Below, piece by piece: positions 2,382-64,000 of a stretch of 64,000 nt of DNA. The position numbers were made by a program, and so were the translations under genes. The stretch comes from Eledone cirrhosa (Eukaryota): assembly GCA_964016885.1 (NCBI GenBank), contig OZ024751.1:22010001-22074000 (forward strand), written 5' to 3'. The notes below the pieces were generated by a model. That model was not told where the DNA came from, searched no databases, and saw nothing but the letters and a program-made list of their open reading frames with translations. Every line of letters starts with the position of its first letter. The first letter of the stretch is position 1.

Positions 2382-3239
2382 GCGAGATTGAATGGCTCCC
2401 CCCCCCCCAATATATACACACTTTTATTAGAATACTGTTGAAGTCTGTATACAATTTTGGGGTCACTCTATATTAAGTTATTTATTTCATAATCAAGATG
2501 ATATTTGTAATACCACATAATAAAAAAGGTTCTTATATCAGTTTATCTCGGAAGATTTTAATATAAATAGGAACCCTTTAAAATGGGTAGTTTTATATAA
2601 TAAAAGCAGAAGCAGTTTTAGGCAGGGTTCTAAGAACAAAAACATTGTGGCTAAGGGGGCTGAAATTCTTTCCTTTGTTAAGTTATTTATAAATTTGTTG
2701 TTGATATTTTTGTTCAATCAGTTAAATTTATAGACGGTAGAAGTTTATTTGGCTGTTATTTCTAGTATATTGAGAAATCATGTAGAGGTTACTTGATATA
2801 ATAAGAGGAATAACAGATTGTGGGCAGCAATTATTTAATGTACACGAACAAAGTCTGGTTGGACTATCACGATTTATTTACTGTTTTATCTAATTATATA
2901 TATTTTTATTGGTTGCAGTCATTAGACTGCGGCCATGCTACGGCTTTAACTTGATTTATTCGATCATATTGAATCCAGTAAATATTTTTCAAACCAGGCC
3001 CTTGATTTTTTGTTTTTTTTCTACCGAACAGCTAATGTGTTACATTTGTTTACATTTTATAATATATCTTAATTTGTTTATTTATTTATTTATTATTTTC
3101 CTTTACTTCAGTAATGCCTTTCCTAAATTGATTAATTAATTTATTTATTCTATATTGTGAGTTCCAATAAAATAAAGAAATTAAAACTGTATGAGCAAGA
3201 TCCGATTGAGTGCGCATACTACAGTCTAATGACTAAATC

Positions 3240-3418
3240 CAGTTAAAGAATGCGAGAGACCCGCCTCTTTATGTTCTGATTTCGAATCCTGCTGAGGTTA
3301 GCTTCGTTTTTTATCATTTTGGGTTCGATAAAAGAAAGCCCCAGTAAAACACTGAGGTCGATTAAATCGACTTCCCTCCCCCAAAATTGTTGGCCTTGTG
3401 CCTAAATCAGAAACCATT
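3240..3418 (+). mobile_element. Nin/Deu-domain tRNA-derived SINE (diverged)
   Basis: B-box-like ttcgaatcc, then ttttatcattttgggttcgataaaa core and gtcgattaaatcgac...ggccttgtgcctaaa tail. Confidence 0.7.
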
Positions 3419-6470: not shown

Positions 6471-6494
6471 ATATATATATATATATATATATAT

Positions 6495-6656
6495 AAAAAG
6501 AAAGCGTGGTAAGGAACCAGGTGGACCATAACGCACCAGAGTACTCGATACTTAGGGTAGTAGAGTGGGTAATAGGAAAAGAGAACCGACGGCTGAGCTC
6601 CAGCCGTTTCGACAGTTAGTAGTTCGGAACTCAGCCGTCGGGGTCCTGACTATTTT

Positions 6657-6659
<3 letters not shown>
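6495..6659 (-). mobile_element. Diverged family-A PLE 3' end with short inverted arm
   Basis: Reverse complement of the family-A tail (ttatggtccacctggttccttaccac) and the HHR 3' half, plus short fold-back ctcagccgtcggggtc...ttcct. (TA)n on both sides. Confidence 0.75.
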
Positions 6660-6691
<32 letters not shown>

Positions 6692-6692
<1 letters not shown>

Positions 6693-7202
6693 TATCGAAT
6701 AAGTAAAAGCGAAGTAGTTTCAGATGTTCAAGTCCTTTAATAATAATGCTGTGATATATATTTCAATGACGACACTGGCCACACTGTTCTGTGTGCGAGT
6801 GTCGTGACATCATCAGACAGCTTGTTACATAATAAGGTTGTTTCCGAGGCAATCCAAATTGAATCGACATGGGAACGGATGAAGTTCGTGCTTTTGGGTT
6901 TTTCATCCGTTCAAATGGATGAAAAACCCAAAACACGAACTTCATCCGTTCCCATGTCGATTCAATTTGGATTGCCTCGGAAACAACCTTATTATGTAAC
7001 AAGCTGTCTGATGATGTCACGACACTCGCACACAGAACAGTGTGGCCAGTGTCGTCATTGAAATATATATCACAACATTATTATTAAAGGACTTGAACAT
7101 CTGAAACTACTTCGCTTTTACTTATTCGATATTTACTCCGTCACTCCTATGTGGAAAAAGTACGTTGAGTGCTTGAATTGAATTACATCAATGTTTACCC
7201 TA
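6692..7202 (+). mobile_element. Fold-back PLE-like element: ~217-bp arms plus 3' tail
   Basis: 6692-6908 is the near-perfect reverse complement of 6917-7132 (mirrored ORFs 6763-7020 and 6804-7061). Tail 7133-7202 has TTGAGTGC at 7165. (TA)n flanks. Confidence 0.85.
7003..7076 (+). ncRNA. Minimal type I hammerhead ribozyme (mirror copy on minus strand ~6748-6821)
   Basis: Stem I gctgt / acaac (acagc in the mirror copy). CTGATGA at 7008-7014. Stem II acgacact...agtgtcgt. GAAA at 7060-7063. Palindromic stem III tatata. AUC cleavage triplet. Confidence 0.8.
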
Positions 7203-42994: not shown

Positions 42995-43685
42995 TATGTA
43001 TGTTTTCTCTTTCTCTTAATTTCGAGTATATTTTTTTGACCGGCCACCTTCCTGGTGGCAAGGTTGTAAAAGAAAAGAAATTGTCATCCCTTGAATCGCA
43101 AGAATGTTTTGCATATTTTGAAGGTGCCAGCTATCGCAGCCATTTGTAGACTATGAATTAGGGAGCTGCGCTTTTTGTCCGCAAATCCAAGTTCGGTCAT
43201 ACTTTGGTCCAAGCGGGTTGGTATATAACCCGTAGCACCAATAATTATGGGTATGAAGCTAAAGGTGTATCTTGGATACTGGATTTGTAAGCTCCTCATC
43301 AATGGTCCGTAGATGTCCTCCTTCTCCTGTATTTTTCTGACAACGTTTACATCAAGTGGGCAGCTGATCTCCACAACAGAACACGTTTTCAATGTGTGGT
43401 CCCAAACTACAATATCAGGCCGGTTGTGCTTTAATTTGGTGGCAGTTTTTATTTTCAGGTTCCACCAGTATTCCTTAGTGCCATCTGTCTCAATATATTC
43501 TTCCTCGTTTGTTGTTAATTTTGTTTTCCGAAGTGCGTTCCAGATAGTTCTAGCTATCCCATCGTGTCTCATGGGGAGGTAGTAGCGAGATGACATTCTT
43601 TCGCAGCTGGCAACAATGTGGCTTACATCCTCGATCTTTGTTTTACATAGCCTACATTTATTGTCAGCTGCTGGCCCTCCTCTTG
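42995..43685 (-). mobile_element. 5'-truncated RLE-type non-LTR retrotransposon (R4/Dong-like) inserted in (CATA)n
   Basis: Open frame 43685-43084 encodes a CCHC knuckle (CRLC...SHIVASC), [12 protein letters not shown]...VVEISCP...KEDIY and IIIGATG, i.e. a restriction-like endonuclease. ~90-nt 3' UTR. (TATG)n on both sides. Confidence 0.9.
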
Positions 43686-43975: not shown

Positions 43976-44099
43976 GTAGATAAATATACCAAAATATTCG
44001 GTAGTGTCCAATCCGTATGAAGAACTCAATGTAATCCAAATATCATGAAAAGAGAAGATGTATTCAAAAATATTTTCGATGAAAATCACAGGAAAACAG

Positions 44100-44276
44100 A
44101 ATGTGCTCAAAAGGGCCACCCCTTATCAAAATAACAGATATGAGTGTAGATTATGTTCCCAGGAACTTTTTGAAATAATGAAATCTAAGGATATCCTATT
44201 AAATAAGCGACAAGAATTAATTATATCGTGCAATCATAGAATTAGAAGAACTTTCAAATATTATAAACCTAATTAA
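44100..44276 (+). pseudogene. C-terminal stub of a PLE GIY-YIG endonuclease ORF
   Basis: NVLKRATPY....ECRLCSQELFEI...LLNKRQELIISCNHR shows CxxC..E..LN.R.E...CxH. It parallels LLNKKDELVTACKHR at 60432. Preceded by an inverted tail (43972-44098) and followed by a long AT-rich UTR. Confidence 0.7.
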
Positions 44277-45181
44277 TATACACTTATATTTTACAAATTA
44301 TTATAATTAGTTTTTTAAAATTTAGTTAAGCTATAATTAGTATTTTACTACTGAGAACTTCATAATTTTATTTCCCTGTTACAGCCATCTTTTCCTAAAA
44401 TTAATACCTATAAGTATACAGATAAACTATTTTAATTTCCTGTTATGAATCTAAATTCCTTGTAGTCTATATAAGTTTGTTATTTCTCACTAATACATTT
44501 ATCCCCCCCAAATTCTTTTTCCTTCGTTTTTAACAACATTCTTTAATAACATCTAACTCTTATTTATCACATCTATATTAATTAATATAAATTTATCCCT
44601 ATAAGTATACCTATCAATTAAATTAATTTAATTTCTTTTTATAGATCTAAATTCCTTATGTTTTAAATAAGATTGGTATTTCTCACTAACACATTTATCC
44701 TAAAATTTTATTCTCCTTCGATTTTAATATTAGCATTATTATTTAATAACATCAAATTTTCGTGTACCTTTCACCGGCTTGACCTCTTTTCATCCCCAAA
44801 GTAATCTTTTCATTCAAAGTATTCTTTCCATTTAAAACTGAAGTCTGCATTCCTCTACCCCTAAATTAAATTTCTACTACTACTATTCTATCAACTTGAC
44901 CACTTACTACTTTTCTATTGGTCAATTCAAAACCTATTCCCAAATAGACCTATTATATTAAATCTTTGTTGTTTTTTTTCAATAAACAAATATCATTATT
45001 TCTGAAGACAGCATATATATGTGTAGGTATGTATATTCCCTCTGATAGTTTGTAAATTTTTTACATAGATCTATATGATATACATACCAACACACACCTA
45101 TATATCCTAGAAACGATCGTAAAATGATGAATTTTTTAATATAAGGAACTGTTTCTTTGTTTTTATTCATTGCTTTTATTA

Positions 45182-45251
<70 letters not shown>

Positions 45252-45255
<4 letters not shown>

Positions 45256-45574
45256 CAGATTAAAGTTTAAGCAAAGAATCGTCGCTGCTTTCACCCTTAA
45301 CGGGATCTTCTGAAACTAAAAAACGTTTCCACGAACCAAAGTATCGTTTTCCTGTCTTCCCTCGGCTGCAACGTTTTTTGAAATATTTACTTCTGCGTTC
45401 ACAGATTGACTTTTTTAGTTTCAGAAGATCCCGTTAAGGGTGAAAGCAGCGATTCTTTGCTTAAACTTTAATCTGTTATTTTAATAAATATTTGCTCTAC
45501 GGTTCTTATATATCTGATATATATTTATCCTTATCGAGCCCTTTTTGTATTTTAGTCTTCAAATTTATTATTAT

Positions 45575-46445: not shown

Positions 46446-46525
<80 letters not shown>

Positions 46526-46528
<3 letters not shown>

Positions 46529-46646
46529 AACCAGTAAGACCCCGACAGCTGAGCTCAAGCCGTTTCGACGGCTTGAGCTCAGCTGTCGGGGTATTGAGTA
46601 CTTTGGTGCGTTATGGTCCACCTGGTTCCTTACCACATTTCCTTCG

Positions 46647-46649
<3 letters not shown>
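46526..46649 (+). mobile_element. Miniature family-A fold-back
   Basis: accccgacagctgagctcaagccgt-ttcg-acggcttgagctcagctgtcggggt hairpin joined to the family-A tail (TTGAGTAC at 46594). (TA)n flanks. Confidence 0.85.
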
Positions 46650-54513: not shown

Positions 54514-54545
<32 letters not shown>

Positions 54546-54550
<5 letters not shown>

Positions 54551-54872
54551 AGTTTATGTTGGTTGTATACCAACACCTCAGTATGTAGGCTGGAGCACTC
54601 GACGAAGTGCGCAGGTTGGTTTGGTTACTCCGGAGTAGTGTAAAATGACTCATATGACTCCAGTTCCTCAGTGAATTAACAACCCAACAAGAAACTGGGC
54701 ATATCAGAGTATTGACAATATCATACACCTAAACAACACATGTACTTGTCTATACCATACTAATTCAAACTGCCTGAAGAGGTCACAGCCAAAGATGGCT
54801 GTCACTGAAATATATATAGCAGTAATAAACGAAGCTAAATTTTAATCATTTGACTTTTATTTAACTTTATTT
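54546..54872. mobile_element. Second family-D insertion: inverted tail fused to one full arm with canonical HHR
   Basis: 54546-54645 is the reverse complement of tail 40898-40996. 54650-54872 matches arm 40679-40900. HHR: actgc CTGAAGA(54774) ... GAAA(54807) tatata TA gcagt. Confidence 0.85.
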
Positions 54873-55681
54873 TATATATATATATATATATATATCGTAT
54901 TGTTTTTGGTATATATATATATATACAATATATATATATATATATATATTGTTATCATTATAGTATAATTTTTCCCTTGCCTTTCATCCTTACGGGGTCG
55001 ATAAAATAAAGTACCAGTAATACACTGGGTAATTGCTGGCCTTGTGCCTAAAGTAGAAACAAGTATTCTTTCATAAGAAAACATTTGCCAAGTGTAGACA
55101 TCGGATCTAATGCAACTTTCTTCATAATCACATGAATGTAATATTTAGTATTCTGTAGAATTCTTGTGGCGAACAAACAGCAGAAACAAGAATCTATGAA
55201 TGGAGTTTTGACGTAGATAGCTATGTATTTAGATAGCAAATTAACTAGGATTTGTCTGTGCTATCGATTAAGTTCAATTGTACAACTGATCAGTTCTACG
55301 TTAGTTTCGTTGTTTTTATAGGATTTCAAAGAAAGATGATATATCTTACATATTGTGAACAATAGCGTCGTATAGTTTTTCGGTCTCAAATGGATCAAAC
55401 ACTGGCCCACCTTATTTGCCGTTCCATACGTATGTATGTATGTATGTATGTATGTATGTATGTATGTATGTATGTATGTATGTATGTATGTATGTATGTA
55501 TGTATGTATGTATGTATGTATGTATGTATGTATGTATGTATGTATGCATATGTGTGTGTGTGTGTGTGTAAAACCCGTAACTCCATGATGGAATCATAGT
55601 GACATACAGCGTGTCTTTTGTATTTTTTAAATCTTGGCGGAGCCCATTCTCTCTCCAGATCTGAACACAGACAATTTTCTC

Positions 55682-56837: not shown

Positions 56838-56887
56838 ATATGAATAAAAAAGAAAATTTTTCGGTCTACATGGCTGAATACAATAAG

Positions 56888-57168
56888 TGTAATCTGAGTT
56901 TTTCGAATATTAATAATAACATTCGATTCGTTTGCAACTATGGAAACAAGCCTCAATTTTATAGCCATGTCAGTAGAATGAACTCTTCATTCTTGCTCTT
57001 GTGTTGGCATGTTAACAGAACTGCAGACACTAATGTTCTGTTCACATGCCAACACAAGAGCAAGAATGAAGAGTTCATTCTACTGACATGGCTATAAAAT
57101 TGAGGCTTGTTTGCATAGTTGCAAACGAATCGAATGTTATTATTAATATTCGAAAAACTCAGATTACA
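56888..57168. repeat. ~133-bp-arm fold-back with no recognisable HHR
   Basis: 56888-57020 is the reverse complement of 57036-57168. The arm is homologous to 3505-3555 plus 3760-3846. Confidence 0.85.
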
Positions 57169-57465
57169 TTTATGTGTATATGTATTTGTATGTATACGTA
57201 CGTATGTATGTATATATGTGTGTATATGAGTTAAGTTGCATATTACCGAGCAATTACGTAAATGCATGTGTCCTAAAGTTTATTATCAATAAAATAAGAT
57301 GAATTAAAACATCGATCTGTTATTCTTGATATAAACCTTGTACAACTTTACTCAATAACAAATGGATGGCAGTATTAATCCGAATACCTACTTCAGGTAA
57401 ATGTAGGATTGTTGAGTTTGGTATCACCTATAGTACTTATTGCTGCTCAACAACCTGACAATATG

Positions 57466-58750: not shown

Positions 58751-59074
58751 ATACCACGTACTTTTTCTCAAAACCTTTTTTCCGTTTCTTCCTCTTCCCA
58801 TACTCTATCTTTCTCTTTCATCTTTTGTTTCTCATTCTATCTCTTGATGAAGGACTAGTATCCGAACCATAAAGGCTTATTTCCTACTATATAAAGTAAT
58901 ATATTTCCTCATTGTACTGTTTTGTTTGTTTTTTTAATTTCCGTTTACATTTGGGTGTGTGTGTGTGTGTATATATATATATTTAATACATATAGAAGCG
59001 AAAACCAACCAAACAGTGAGTGTGTTCTGTTATTAATTCTGGCAATATTACACAAATATGACCTCCCCAAGTAT

Positions 59075-59109
<35 letters not shown>

Positions 59110-60410
59110 AACCAGTAAGACCCCGACAGCTGAGCTCAAGCCGTTTCGACGGCTAATTCTGGACTAAATGAACATTTATCCTGGTATTTAAATAGCCGAT
59201 CTTCTCAAGGGGTAATTCCATATATGGTCAAAGTGATTGTCAAAAATCAGTAGTAATTCTGTGGTTGCAAATTAGTAGGGGAGATGGTGGCTAAACCTGC
59301 CAGTAGGAGAAAGAGGGGAGGGGGTGGAGTAGACCCAATCAAGCGTTGGTAGTGCCAGCTACAGCTGGGCATGAGGTCAAAGAAGATACAGGGGAGGGGG
59401 AGGGGGAGGAAGTCGGAACGGTAGGTAGAACAATGGGGGGTAAAAATAGGAAAGAAAAAATACTGAGAGTGAAGAAAAGCAAAAAAGTGTAAAGAAAAAA
59501 TTAAATTCTACGACCTAGGTGTCAGGCTATTGTTAGGCGAGAATAAAATAAAGAAAGAAAGAAAGAAGTAAATAAATAAATAAATAAATAAATAAGGAAA
59601 TAAGTAAAAGAACTAGGTGGGACGAATTAAGCAAGGACCCTTTTAAGAGGTATAAGTACGTAAATGATACGGTGACTGGTCAACAAAAGGGGCCAAAATA
59701 CTAAAGAGACTACCACGAAATAAACAATAAAGGTTTCCATCCCGGGCCAGCAACGACCCAGTGCAGCAAAGTGAACTTGTACGACATAATAATTCTGAGT
59801 CCCGGGAAAAATATATACTAATGCTAACTCTAAAAGATCTAAAACAAGCTACATGAAAGTTCGTACGAAATAAAGGTAGAATACGGAGAAATAAGTTCAG
59901 AATCCACCCCGCCCAGAAGAAAAGCGAAGCAAGAAATACTGAAACGAAAAAATAAGGCATAAGTGCCACTAAGAAATAAAGAGGGCACAGAAAATGGTGG
60001 GAGCGGTCGGAAAAGGGGGGCAAGTATCCGGGGTCTAAGCCAACTGCTATAAAGGGCGGAGTCCGCCAAATCTATCAAAGACTAGGGGAGGGGGGAGTGG
60101 GGGTACTAAGGCTACATGGGGCCAAAGGGCAGCCTCGGGTGGGCGAGAAAAGACGCCGACAAAGGAGAAGAGCTGGGGTAGAAGGACAAAGGAGAGAGGG
60201 GGGAAGGAAATAAAGGATGCGATAAAAGAATACAAAGAAGATCTTACGTCTTCCTTGGCAAGCAGGGGTTACCCATTGCAAAATCGGCAACTGGGGTGTT
60301 AAAGCCCTAGTCTACCCCCCCGGGTCATTATGGGGTTTGAGGGCGAGGTAAGTCCTACGCAATCTATGTTTACATGCAGTAACCAGTTCATCTTTCTTGT
60401 TTAGGAGTTG

Positions 60411-60539
60411 GTCCTGTTTTCGACGGACCAACTCCTAAACAAGAAAGATGAACTGGTTACTGCATGTAAACATAGATTGCGTAGGACTTACCTCGCCCTC
60501 AAACCCCATAATGACCCGGGGGGGAGACTAGGGCTTTAA
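60411..60539 (+). pseudogene. Extreme C-terminus of PLE endonuclease ORF at the palindrome centre
   Basis: VLFSTDQLLNKKDELVTACKHRLRRTYLALKPHNDPGGRLGL*, homologous to 44100-44276. Confidence 0.7.
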
Positions 60540-61622
60540 CACCCCAGTTGCCGATTTTGCAATGGGTAACCCCTGCTTGCCAAGGAAGACGTAAGATCTT
60601 CTTTGTATTCTTTTATCGCATCCTTTATTTCCTTCCCCCCTCTCTCCTTTGTCCTTCTACCCCAGCTCTTCTCCTTTGTCGGCGTCTTTTCTCGCCCACC
60701 CGAGGCTGCCCTTTGGCCCCATGTAGCCTTAGTACCCCCACTCCCCCCTCCCCTAGTCTTTGATAGATTTGGCGGACTCCGCCCTTTATAGCAGTTGGCT
60801 TAGACCCCGGATACTTGCCCCCCTTTTCCGACCGCTCCCACCATTTTCTGTGCCCTCTTTATTTCTTAGTGGCACTTATGCCTTATTTTTTCGTTTCAGT
60901 ATTTCTTGCTTCGCTTTTCTTCTGGGCGGGGTGGATTCTGAACTTATTTCTCCGTATTCTACCTTTATTTCGTACGAACTTTCATGTAGCTTGTTTTAGA
61001 TCTTTTAGAGTTAGCATTAGTATATATTTTTCCCGGGACTCAGAATTATTATGTCGTACAAGTTCACTTTGCTGCACTGGGTCGTTGCTGGCCCGGGATG
61101 GAAACCTTTATTGTTTATTTCGTGGTAGTCTCTTTAGTATTTTGGCCCTTTTGTTGACCAGTCACCGTATCATTTACGTACTTATACCTCTTAAAAGGGT
61201 CCTTGCTTAATTCGTCCCACCTAGTTCTTTTACTTATTTCCTTATTTATTTATTTATTTATTTATTTACTTCTTTCTTTCTTTCTTTATTTTATTCTCGC
61301 CTAACAATAGCCTGACACCTAGGTCGTAGAATTTAATTTTTTCTTTACACTTTTTTGCTTTTCTTCACTCTCAGTATTTTTTCTTTCCTATTTTACCCCC
61401 CATTGTTCTACCTACCGTTCCGACTTCCTCCCCCTCCCCCTCCCCTGTATCTTCTTTGACCTCATGCCCAGCTGTAGCTGGCACTACCAACGCTTGATTG
61501 GGTCTACTCCACCCCCTCCCCTCTTTCCTCCTACTGGCAGGTTTAGCCACCATCTCCCTACTAATTTGCAACCACAGAATTACTACTGATTTTTGACAAT
61601 CACTTTGACCATATATGGAATT

Positions 61623-61717
61623 ACCCCCTTGAGAAGATCGGCTATTTAAATACCAGGATAAATGTTCATTTAGTCCAGAATTAGCCGTCGAAACGGCTTG
61701 AGCTCAGCTGTCGGGGT
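61623..61717 (+). ncRNA. Type I hammerhead with UUGAGAA (U3-A8) core (mirror copy 59120-59213 on minus strand)
   Basis: Stem I cccc/gggg (acccc/ggggt in the mirror). TTGAGAA at 61629-61635. Stem II ga.cggcta...tagccg.tc. GAAA at 61690-61693. Stem III cggct...agctg around palindromic tgagctca. GUC at 61710-61712. Confidence 0.75.
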
Positions 61718-61809
61718 CTTACTGGTTCCTATTACCCACTCTACTACCTCAAGTATTGAGTACTTTGGTGCGTTATGGTCCACCTGGTTCCTTACCACAT
61801 TTCCTTCGT

Positions 61810-61843
<34 letters not shown>

Positions 61844-62466: not shown

Positions 62467-62642
62467 TTGTGTTTGTGTCTATATTATATCTGTATTTTTG
62501 ACCGTTGGTCAGTCAATGGTAAACATTGTGGATCGAATAAATTAACTGATATAAAAGATACAGAAGCGAAAACCAACCAAACAGTGAGTGTGTTCTGTTA
62601 TTAATTCTGGCAATATTATTACAACAATATGACCCTCCCCAA

Positions 62643-62695
<53 letters not shown>

Positions 62696-63003
62696 AACTA
62701 CAAAAACAAAGACGGTTGAACTGCCTTACGTTGAGTACTCTCTATATTATTGCATTACGATTGACCATACGGAATAGACCAGCTCTATACAGTGGTAAAC
62801 CTCAAACCTGAATAAATATATATATATATATATATTTCGTTTCTGAATTTGTTTAGCAAGATTCTTTATCTGAAAACGTGTGTTGAAACCGATATTGTTA
62901 TACTTTGGGAGGGTCTTATTGGCAACATGACCCTCCCAAAGTATAAATATATATATATATATATAAACATATAGACATATATCTAGCTATCTATCTGTCT
63001 ATC

Positions 63004-63346: not shown

Positions 63347-63348
<2 letters not shown>

Positions 63349-63499
63349 CGAAGGAAATGTGGTAAGGAACCAGGTGGACCATAACGCACCAAAGTACTCA
63401 ATACTTAGGGTAGTAGAGTGGGTAATAGGAACAAGTAAGACCCCGACGGCTGAGCTCAAGCCGTTTCGACGGCTAATTCTGGACCAATTCTTACTTGTT

Positions 63500-63502
<3 letters not shown>
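63347..63502 (-). mobile_element. Short family-A copy with 15-bp inverted arm
   Basis: Reverse complement of 61672-61810 plus tcttacttgttcct fold-back. (TA)n flanks. Confidence 0.85.
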
Positions 63503-63540
<38 letters not shown>

Positions 63541-63542
<2 letters not shown>

Positions 63543-63981
63543 AAAGTTATATTTAAAATTGTTGGGTTACAACTAGTAAATATTTATAACTGATATAAAA
63601 GCACTCGACAAATATTTGGAGTATATTTACAATATTAAATAAATGGAAACTATATTTATAAAACCATATCTATTTCATTATATATATTTCGGGGATATCA
63701 TATTAACAATATGTTATGCCTTCCTCAGACAAAATACAATATAAACAGTTTTATAGATAAATAGATTCGACATACCGTTATAACACCGACTTGCATTTGA
63801 AGAGAACCTCTTCAAATGCAAGTCGGTGTTATAACGGTATGTCGAATCTATTTATCTATAAAACTGTTTATATTGTATTTTGTCTGAGGAAGGCATAACA
63901 TATTGTTAATATGATATCCCCGAAATATATATAATGAAATAGATATGGTTTTATAAATATAGTTTCCATTTATTTAATATT
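63541..63981 (-). mobile_element. Fold-back PLE-like element with ~174-bp perfect arms
   Basis: 63631-63804 is the reverse complement of 63808-63981 (loop aac). HHR: ttttgt CTGAGGA(63884) ...catatt-gtt-aatatg... GAAA(63922) tatata TA atgaaa. Minus-strand tail 63541-63630 has TCGAGTGC. Confidence 0.85.
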
Positions 63982-64000
63982 ATATATATATATATATATA

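Follow-up and report, generated by a model that had tools for sequence, protein, structure and literature searches.

A large palindrome made of two back-to-back 3' ends of a Hydra-clade Penelope-like element, and the two fixed sites at which its copies end

The large palindrome at 59105-61732 of the window (the whole 64-kb stretch of DNA that was analysed) consists of the 3' end of a Hydra-clade Penelope-like element (PLE), present twice in back-to-back order, 5'-truncated and set in (TA)n. It is probably one 5'-truncated insertion for which each of the two nicked target strands served as a primer of reverse transcription, at fixed sites lying 78 nt apart, with a cDNA that likely folded back. 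A wider generalization is held more tentatively, at slightly under an even chance: that PLE inverted copies arise by obligatory twin priming at two fixed RNA sites, that tail and inverted arm are two faces of one phenomenon, and that fold-back or end joining closes the centre, in a host with an abundant Hydra subclade marked by a long UTR and an enlarged hammerhead.

The palindrome proper measures 2,628 bp, with arms at 59105-60414 and 60425-61732 (arm alignment; blastn E=0) separated by a loop of 10 nt, 60415-60424. The arms of ~1.31 kb had been described from the letters as differing by small homopolymer indels, and the alignment agrees: over 1,308 positions there are 0 substitutions and 6 single-base indels, all six in or beside homopolymers. 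The 2.6-kb near-palindrome had been placed at 59107..61810, however, and this holds for the paired part but not for 61733-61811, which is a non-palindromic, unpaired tail of 78 nt present on the right arm only. A (TA)n tract adjoins both outer ends. The 5' truncation, inverted partner and one-sided tail that are traits of EN+ Penelope-like elements are all present at the palindrome, the parts of which are as follows.

59080-59107, no strand: left (TA)n target tract, from the sequence; its last 3 nt overlap the arm end
59105-60414, minus strand: left arm, inverted and tail-less; its outer end is fixed site B (equivalent to 61732)
59120-59213, minus strand: mirror hammerhead in the left arm, helix I of 5 bp (ACCCC/GGGGT)
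60414-60524, plus strand: ORF end, the last 37 codons of a Hydra-type RT-GIY-YIG frame (LNK..E....CxH), with the family stop TAG next
60415-60424, plus strand: loop of 10 nt, native plus-strand coding sequence, 1 nt shared at the junction
60425-61732, plus strand: right arm, sense, from the arm alignment
60528-61622, plus strand: 3' UTR of about 1.1 kb, 68% pyrimidine by composition
61623-61717, plus strand: predicted type I hammerhead, core TTGAGAA at 61629-61635, helix II span 54 nt, GAAA, palindromic helix III
61733-61811, plus strand: tail of 78 nt between site B and site A, on one arm only
61810-61829, no strand: right (TA)n target tract, from the sequence

The frame through the loop covers 37 codons from 60414, and translation confirms that the loop reads in frame into LLNKKDELVTACKHR, as the sequence-only reading had it. 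Upstream and variant data were taken from four runs (X1, X4, X5 and X21) aligned on 60380-61812, with X6-X20 (small word share) unused. Other copies of the family are seen upstream of 60414/60415 in 3,360 + 1,519 RAD reads of X21 and in 1 contig of X4, with letters that differ from those of the inverted arm and end in ATG. Thirty of these letters, from the X21 reads and the X4 contig, were translated by hand as N-L-C-S-E-E-T-L-Q-M, and the two differences between the X4 and X21 versions are both in synonymous third positions. Because other copies continue in frame upstream of 60414, the loop is native in the plus sense and the frame is open upstream. Such an extension had been set beforehand as a refutation test and came out in favour; together with the stub motif, it supports the earlier placement of the palindrome centre inside the end of a GIY-YIG ORF.

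Two details of that earlier account did not survive. The proposed 5-nt microhomology (ggtcc/ggacc) at the junction is rejected, since other copies have different letters upstream of 60414: GGTCC is the end of the inverted arm, and only one nucleotide (C60414/G60425) is shared. The stop codon had been read at 60539, but the left arm reads PGG-stop at the ORF end and TAG stands right behind 60524 in other copies (54 contigs of X1, 1 contig of X4 and 1,373 reads of X21), so that the reading at 60539 follows from a base missing in the right arm. The right arm has lost one base near 60524, and the family stop lies at about 60525. The 37-aa stub by itself gave 0 Pfam families, 0 homologs and no usable Atlas match. 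RT is absent from the palindrome copy, which cannot move by itself.

Judged from its letters, the element is Penelope-like, belongs to the Hydra clade, and is represented here by its 3' end. In the available part of the PMC8557442 supplement, the Hydra clade is recognizable by the ending CxxC..E...LNK[RK]xE....CxH, which the Penelope/Poseidon, Nematis and Neptune rows lack. The CxH motif after the conserved N is present in the window (LNKKDELVTACKH), and the stub is identical at 10 of 14 residues to the most similar row ends (LNKKS, ELVSACRHR) of Fig. S7 as available. As for the CxxC before the conserved E, the second C and the E are in place (N-L-C-S-E-E), while the position of the first C would fall one codon past the 30 letters available; the sister copy at 44049 carries CRLC..E. 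The (TA)n target, also a trait of the Hydra clade, adjoins 10 of 10 outer ends, in a window of which (TA)6+ tracts make up 8%.

Relatives in metagenome contigs extend this picture. The degenerate pattern LLNK..E....CxH gave 121 matches; 84 of the 108 distinct ends have at least 25 open codons upstream, and CxxC..E, which was not part of the search pattern, occurs in 69 of these 84. Eight of the 121 matches belong to ORFs of 662-756 aa with RWK, DKT, YRDDG and a CxC linker; the part of the ORF that would carry the Hydra-clade traits RWK, DKT, a CxCX5C linker and the lack of CCHH lies outside the window. For the metagenome locus L068, a fold search with the predicted structure (mean pLDDT 57.8) returned telomerases as the first match (E 7e-6), and the predicted region 588-695 resembles the I-TevI catalytic domain (Z 9.3, rmsd 2.3, 89 aligned). 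Pfam gave no RT or GIY-YIG match on 7 full-length metagenome relatives, and a PDB sequence search returned only two weak, unrelated rows, so that domain identity rests on the motif match and the fold search. A profile of 46 C-termini matches the stub as a domain end (E 1.6e-6 and 9.1e-6 in a comparison with 2,676 peptides of the window that is partly circular); the three matches below E 1e-5 are the two arms and 44049, and the next, unrelated, has E 2.5. The GIY-YIG core lies outside the palindrome copy, the stub being the end of the domain only.

Several other assignments were rejected. Neptune is ruled out, as its endonuclease end is without CxxC/CxH. Naiad has an N-terminal endonuclease and no canonical hammerhead, whereas here the motif is followed by a stop, the UTR and a hammerhead. 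A non-LTR retrozyme consists of non-coding tandem hammerhead repeats, according to the available part of 10.64898/2026.07.22.740005, whereas the copies here occur singly or as inverted pairs and lead on into an ORF. Of five short family motifs, four were not found in the PMC8557442 supplement, as far as available, and the fifth matched only in non-Hydra consensi. A short element (<3 kb) with a canonical hammerhead, a Hydra trait that is descriptive and does not define the clade, is not what is found here (1.1-kb UTR, U3-A8 core, 54-nt helix II span). The element is a new family within the known Hydra clade, with some unusual dimensions and an ordinary structure.

The unusually long (~1.1 kb), pyrimidine-rich UTR and the hammerhead at 61623 were both correctly recognized from the letters. 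The UTR has 68% pyrimidine over 1,095 nt after the stop, and 61623-61717 folds as a type I hammerhead with its core at 61629 (TTGAGAA, a U3-A8 variant), G10.1-C11.1, GAAA and a predicted cleavage site GTC at 61710-61712. Among common family variants, 61709 T>C changes a G-U to a G-C pair and 61681 T>A adds a pair to helix II. Rfam gave 0 matches at gathering score in the window and one chance match, E 8.6, in 61560-61812, and the fold energy of the hammerhead is ordinary relative to shuffles (z 0.14). A relaxed hammerhead scan of the window found 11 sites, whereas 30 shuffles gave 0.53 on average and 4 at most; seven are in hairpins and one in a copy of a hairpin family, which upholds the suggested link between the other hairpins of the window and hammerhead-bearing elements. 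The matches outside hairpins are at 6816 (-), 23396 (-) and 28029 (+). Hairpins 446-573, 38592-38778 and 63622-63990 each have hammerhead-like cores and are probably other PLE families; those at 45254-45470, 56878-57179 and 15355-15740 had no hammerhead match in the scan, and the hairpin at 15355 consists of a dispersed repeat of about 200 nt that occurs very frequently, in many copies.

The U3-A8 core is a known covariant in PLE hammerheads (PMC4209133, as available) and is absent among the Hydra rows of the available File S2 of PMC8557442, where the core is CTGA in 26 of 26. The distance from stop to core is about 1,100 nt here versus 32-360 nt (median 103) in the 47 of 121 metagenome matches with a C3-G8 hammerhead, and the helix II span is 54 nt versus 10-22 nt in the same 47 rows, in a scan that covered C3-G8 with spans of up to 70 nt, which longer forms may escape, and that left out three rows with a TTGA.AA match. 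Among 58 metagenome rows with at least 400 nt after the stop, 30 had no C3-G8 match. The sister family at 44049-45170 has a stop-to-core distance of 726 nt and a helix II span of 101 nt, which suggests that a long distance and an enlarged helix II are a trend of the host lineage. This plus-strand sister is a Hydra-type family with a hammerhead of C3-G8 core and an endonuclease end of 75 aa, of which 30 aa align with the stub at 53% identity; it ends near (TA)n, and the 75-aa fragment gave 0 homologs.

The window contains six copies of the family, five of them in addition to the palindrome.

6494-6660, minus strand: older short copy, 89% identity; inverted arm ends at site B
40385-40429, plus strand: tail-only copy; ends at site A
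42227-42937, minus strand: diverged copy, about 67% in the UTR; ends at site B
46524-46648, plus strand: short copy of the palindrome's own subfamily; tail-less arm folds back, then a 58-nt tail piece is joined at GT
63347-63503, minus strand: short copy; 138-nt tail-bearing arm plus a 14-16-nt inverted arm to site B

All ten outer ends examined in these six copies lie next to (TA)n at one of two sites 78 nt apart, site A (about 61811) and site B (61732), with five ends at each; counted from the predicted cleavage site in the 3' direction, B comes after about 20 nt and A after about 98 nt. The left arm of the palindrome shares its tail-less end with the copies at 6660, 42227, 46524 and 63503, and elsewhere site B followed by (TA)n was found in 3,181 X21 reads and in 48 X1, 3 X4 and 6 X5 contigs. 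In the anole element, the PLE tail is the stretch between two RT start sites, and both target strands are cut and extended (PMC11167929, in the part available); the 78-nt one-sided stretch is the known PLE "tail". The summed X1 depth at 61676-61812 is about 3 million versus 12,000-154,000 over most of the body, a profile consistent with strong 5' truncation, depth not being equal to copy number. The X5 depth, unlike that of X1, is raised over the distal UTR (61100-61400) and very low at the ORF end.

The inner joints are more varied. In copy 46524 the tail-less arm reaches 61683, and its fold-back stem of 6 bp with a TTCG loop has -6.9 kcal/mol, equalled in 3 of 200 shuffles. In a second family, the copy 54545-54874 combines a tail-only arm with a tail-less one, and the overlap between them is 6 nt. 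Among the 11 listed of 12 opposite-strand joints, five pair 61668-61682 with a point inside the tail (sidedness not given), five have both points before site B, and one joins two outer ends; 61668-61673 is also the point where a diverged subfamily departs from the reference. The long symmetric hairpins of the window have tiny loops of 10, 3 and 13 nt.

Other repeats surround these copies: the window is rich in microsatellites, resembles animal DNA and has several further hairpins. At 40461-40997 the second hammerhead family forms a hairpin of 441 nt whose one-sided tail measures 96 nt, and its copies 40461-40997 and 54545-54874 are truncated at one common self-complementary 8-mer. A palindrome of mixed host repeats and microsatellites (39014-40351) lies directly 5' of the tail-only copy 40385. 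A TA-terminated repeat family (58994-59107, 38900-38998, 39259-39373, 39946-40060, 62549-62681 and 62896-62950) forms the left flank of the palindrome, has a mini-hairpin at 62896 and may represent the tail of yet another PLE family. An open frame at 43084-43650 (-) carries zinc-knuckle and RHD/PD motifs, and we take it to resemble the restriction-enzyme-like endonuclease end of a non-LTR retrotransposon.

The 0 substitutions over 1,308 positions and the short copy 46524, which is 100% identical to the palindrome over 50+25+58 nt, point to a recent insertion, although polishing or conversion can homogenise arms. The same two observations bear out the earlier description of a young, 5'-truncated PLE copy.

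The proposed mechanism leans on an anole PLE for which, in the accessible part of PMC11167929, both strands are cut and extended in vitro and reverse transcription starts at two internal sites bounding the tail; the analogy is limited by the fact that this biochemistry comes from a different PLE clade. By this analogy, both nicked target strands would prime reverse transcription here, at fixed RNA sites A and B. The cDNA primed at site A would run for 1.4 kb, stop at 60414 and jump onto itself with 1 nt of pairing; its plus-strand copy would then anneal to the cDNA primed at site B, fixing the far end at 61732. If a tail-primed cDNA simply folded back, the tail-less arm could only be one contained in the tail-bearing arm, a rule broken by copy 46524. 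From this copy, the barely overlapping arms of 54545-54874 and the joints, we infer that both target strands acted as primers and that fold-back or end joining closed the centre. The tiny loops of 10, 3 and 13 nt in the long hairpins are what fold-back predicts. The two arms share letters absent from nearly all reads of other copies (e.g. 60859, 60943 and 61353) and so come from one source. The sequence-only reading had invoked fold-back of a young, 5'-truncated PLE, of which truncation and youth stand, but fold-back alone is incomplete in view of the fixed end at 61732 and the barely overlapping arms. Three findings at the centre count against this best reading: the cDNA end pairs with only 1 nt, its predicted fold has -1.3 kcal/mol (z 0.47) and would prime a different product, and none of the contigs and joints listed bridges 60414/60425. 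That the stub alone gave no homolog also counts against it.

In an alternative, two long cDNAs, made by a dimeric RT from one or two RNAs, start at both priming sites, stop within 10 nt of each other and are joined end to end with no fold-back. The junction microhomology of just 1 nt suits this model, as do the barely overlapping arms of the short copies, which are end joins, and the anole protein, which is a predicted dimer and extends both strands (PMC11167929, as available). Yet the model needs two independent 1.3-kb cDNAs that stop 10 nt apart, the other long hairpins likewise have loops of 3-13 nt, and copy 46524 shows a real fold-back. For the large palindrome, then, the 10-nt loop and identical arms favour fold-back, which is the probable course, and the single shared base favours end joining, which is unlikely. 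Perfect arms, a small loop and a fixed tail-less end could also be had from a single priming at the tail end, if the cDNA folded back and the endonuclease then cleaved or resolved it at site B (the sequence-only model combined with the "EN-mediated resolution" of the available part of PMC8557442), and the TA/ATA common to both ends and the target would fit. This is nevertheless improbable, since it cannot yield a tail-less arm that is longer than the tail-bearing arm or has sequence missing from it (46524, 54545), nor lone copies that end at site B (42227).

The palindrome might instead be younger than the insertion, or unreal. A later inversion of the inserted copy, through repair of a break or a template switch in replication, gains some plausibility from the non-PLE hairpins that occur here, including the mixed-host-repeat palindrome at 39014-40351, but is very improbable given that the inverted arm stops exactly at fixed site B with no flank included. 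A fold-back chimera from long-read sequencing or assembly is scarcely credible, even though the differences confined to homopolymer indels resemble long-read consensus errors and no piece or joint bridges 60414/60425 among the 24 listed of 17,758 pieces; X21 reads at the centre start at a restriction site, and the palindrome copy is without that site. A chimera would mirror the tail and right flank, but the left arm ends at site B with another flank beyond it, which makes an assembly or read artefact unlikely, and similar structures occur in other assemblies (L020, L034).

The formation of tandem and inverted PLE structures is named as an open question in the accessible part of PMC8557442, and the later insertion steps are left unvalidated in that of PMC11167929. 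A very abundant family whose ends are fixed 78 nt apart offers natural junctions with which to separate twin priming, fold-back and endonuclease resolution, and with six copies of one family in 64 kb, such junctions could test the twin-priming model statistically, if it is true. The family also accounts for hairpins strewn in TA repeats of the genome, and so bears on assembly and palindrome-driven instability. The palindrome by itself is an outcome to be expected of a known class; the family is of use for an unsettled question of mechanism. In the literature searched, which lay outside subscription papers and Repbase, there was no published twin-priming model of PLE inversions, no second Hydra-clade paper and nothing on cephalopod hairpin families (including in the available part of PMC13282606); the family or the model may have been published in subscription papers or recorded in Repbase.

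The closest known system is the Hydra clade, as described in the available part of PMC8557442, with which the family shares LNK[RK]xE....CxH, LC..E 14 residues upstream, a stop soon after, a downstream type I hammerhead, 5' truncation and a (TA)n target (26 of 27 families listed there). Inverted 5'-truncated partners are already described in this source for PLEs generally, and a 966-nt inverted 5'-truncated copy is listed for Penelope-13_HM of Hydra. The family differs in its U3-A8 core, 54-nt helix II span and stop-to-core distance of about 1,100 nt, and its tail has 78 nt versus 30-40 bp in the described Hydra elements (PMC8557442, as available); unusual here are the 1.1-kb UTR, the enlarged ribozyme and the long tail. 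Hydra-1_Obim, as far as its record was available, has a different C-terminus and ribozyme. The Neptune, Nematis and Penelope/Poseidon clades also have a C-terminal GIY-YIG, a hammerhead and inverted partners, but their Fig. S7 rows, as available, are without the CxxC and CxH motifs (PMC8557442). The Poseidon element PAc of Anolis resembles the family in its AT-rich target, its cutting and extension of both strands and its two RT start sites 3' of the hammerhead that bound the tail; it differs in clade, endonuclease end and shorter tail, and the accessible part of PMC11167929 gives no mechanism for inverted copies. The PLE hammerheads of PMC4209133, as available, share the type I fold, short helix I, long helix II, G10.1-C11.1 and palindromic helix III, and those of Schistosoma include the U3-A8 covariant and opposite-strand hammerhead pairs 100-700 bp apart; the helix II insertion and helix III are larger here and the two ribozymes 2.4 kb apart.

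Among metagenome loci of at least 1 kb, some inverted repeat is present in 21 of 79. At L034 (3620-4690) a 1.07-kb hairpin has its midpoint, by eye, within another PLE-like endonuclease end; L020 has a Hydra ORF end with an inverted 188-nt copy (1091-1278 / 3129-3311). L068 carries motif copies at 87-128 and 2468-2509, 2,381 nt apart and flanking a 714-aa ORF, and by this layout is a tandem Hydra element in the pLTR arrangement. In L1 twin priming, both target strands prime cDNA and an inverted part is joined at microhomology, with a second priming site that varies and arms that do not overlap. In the family described here, by comparison, the second priming site is fixed and the arms can overlap fully.
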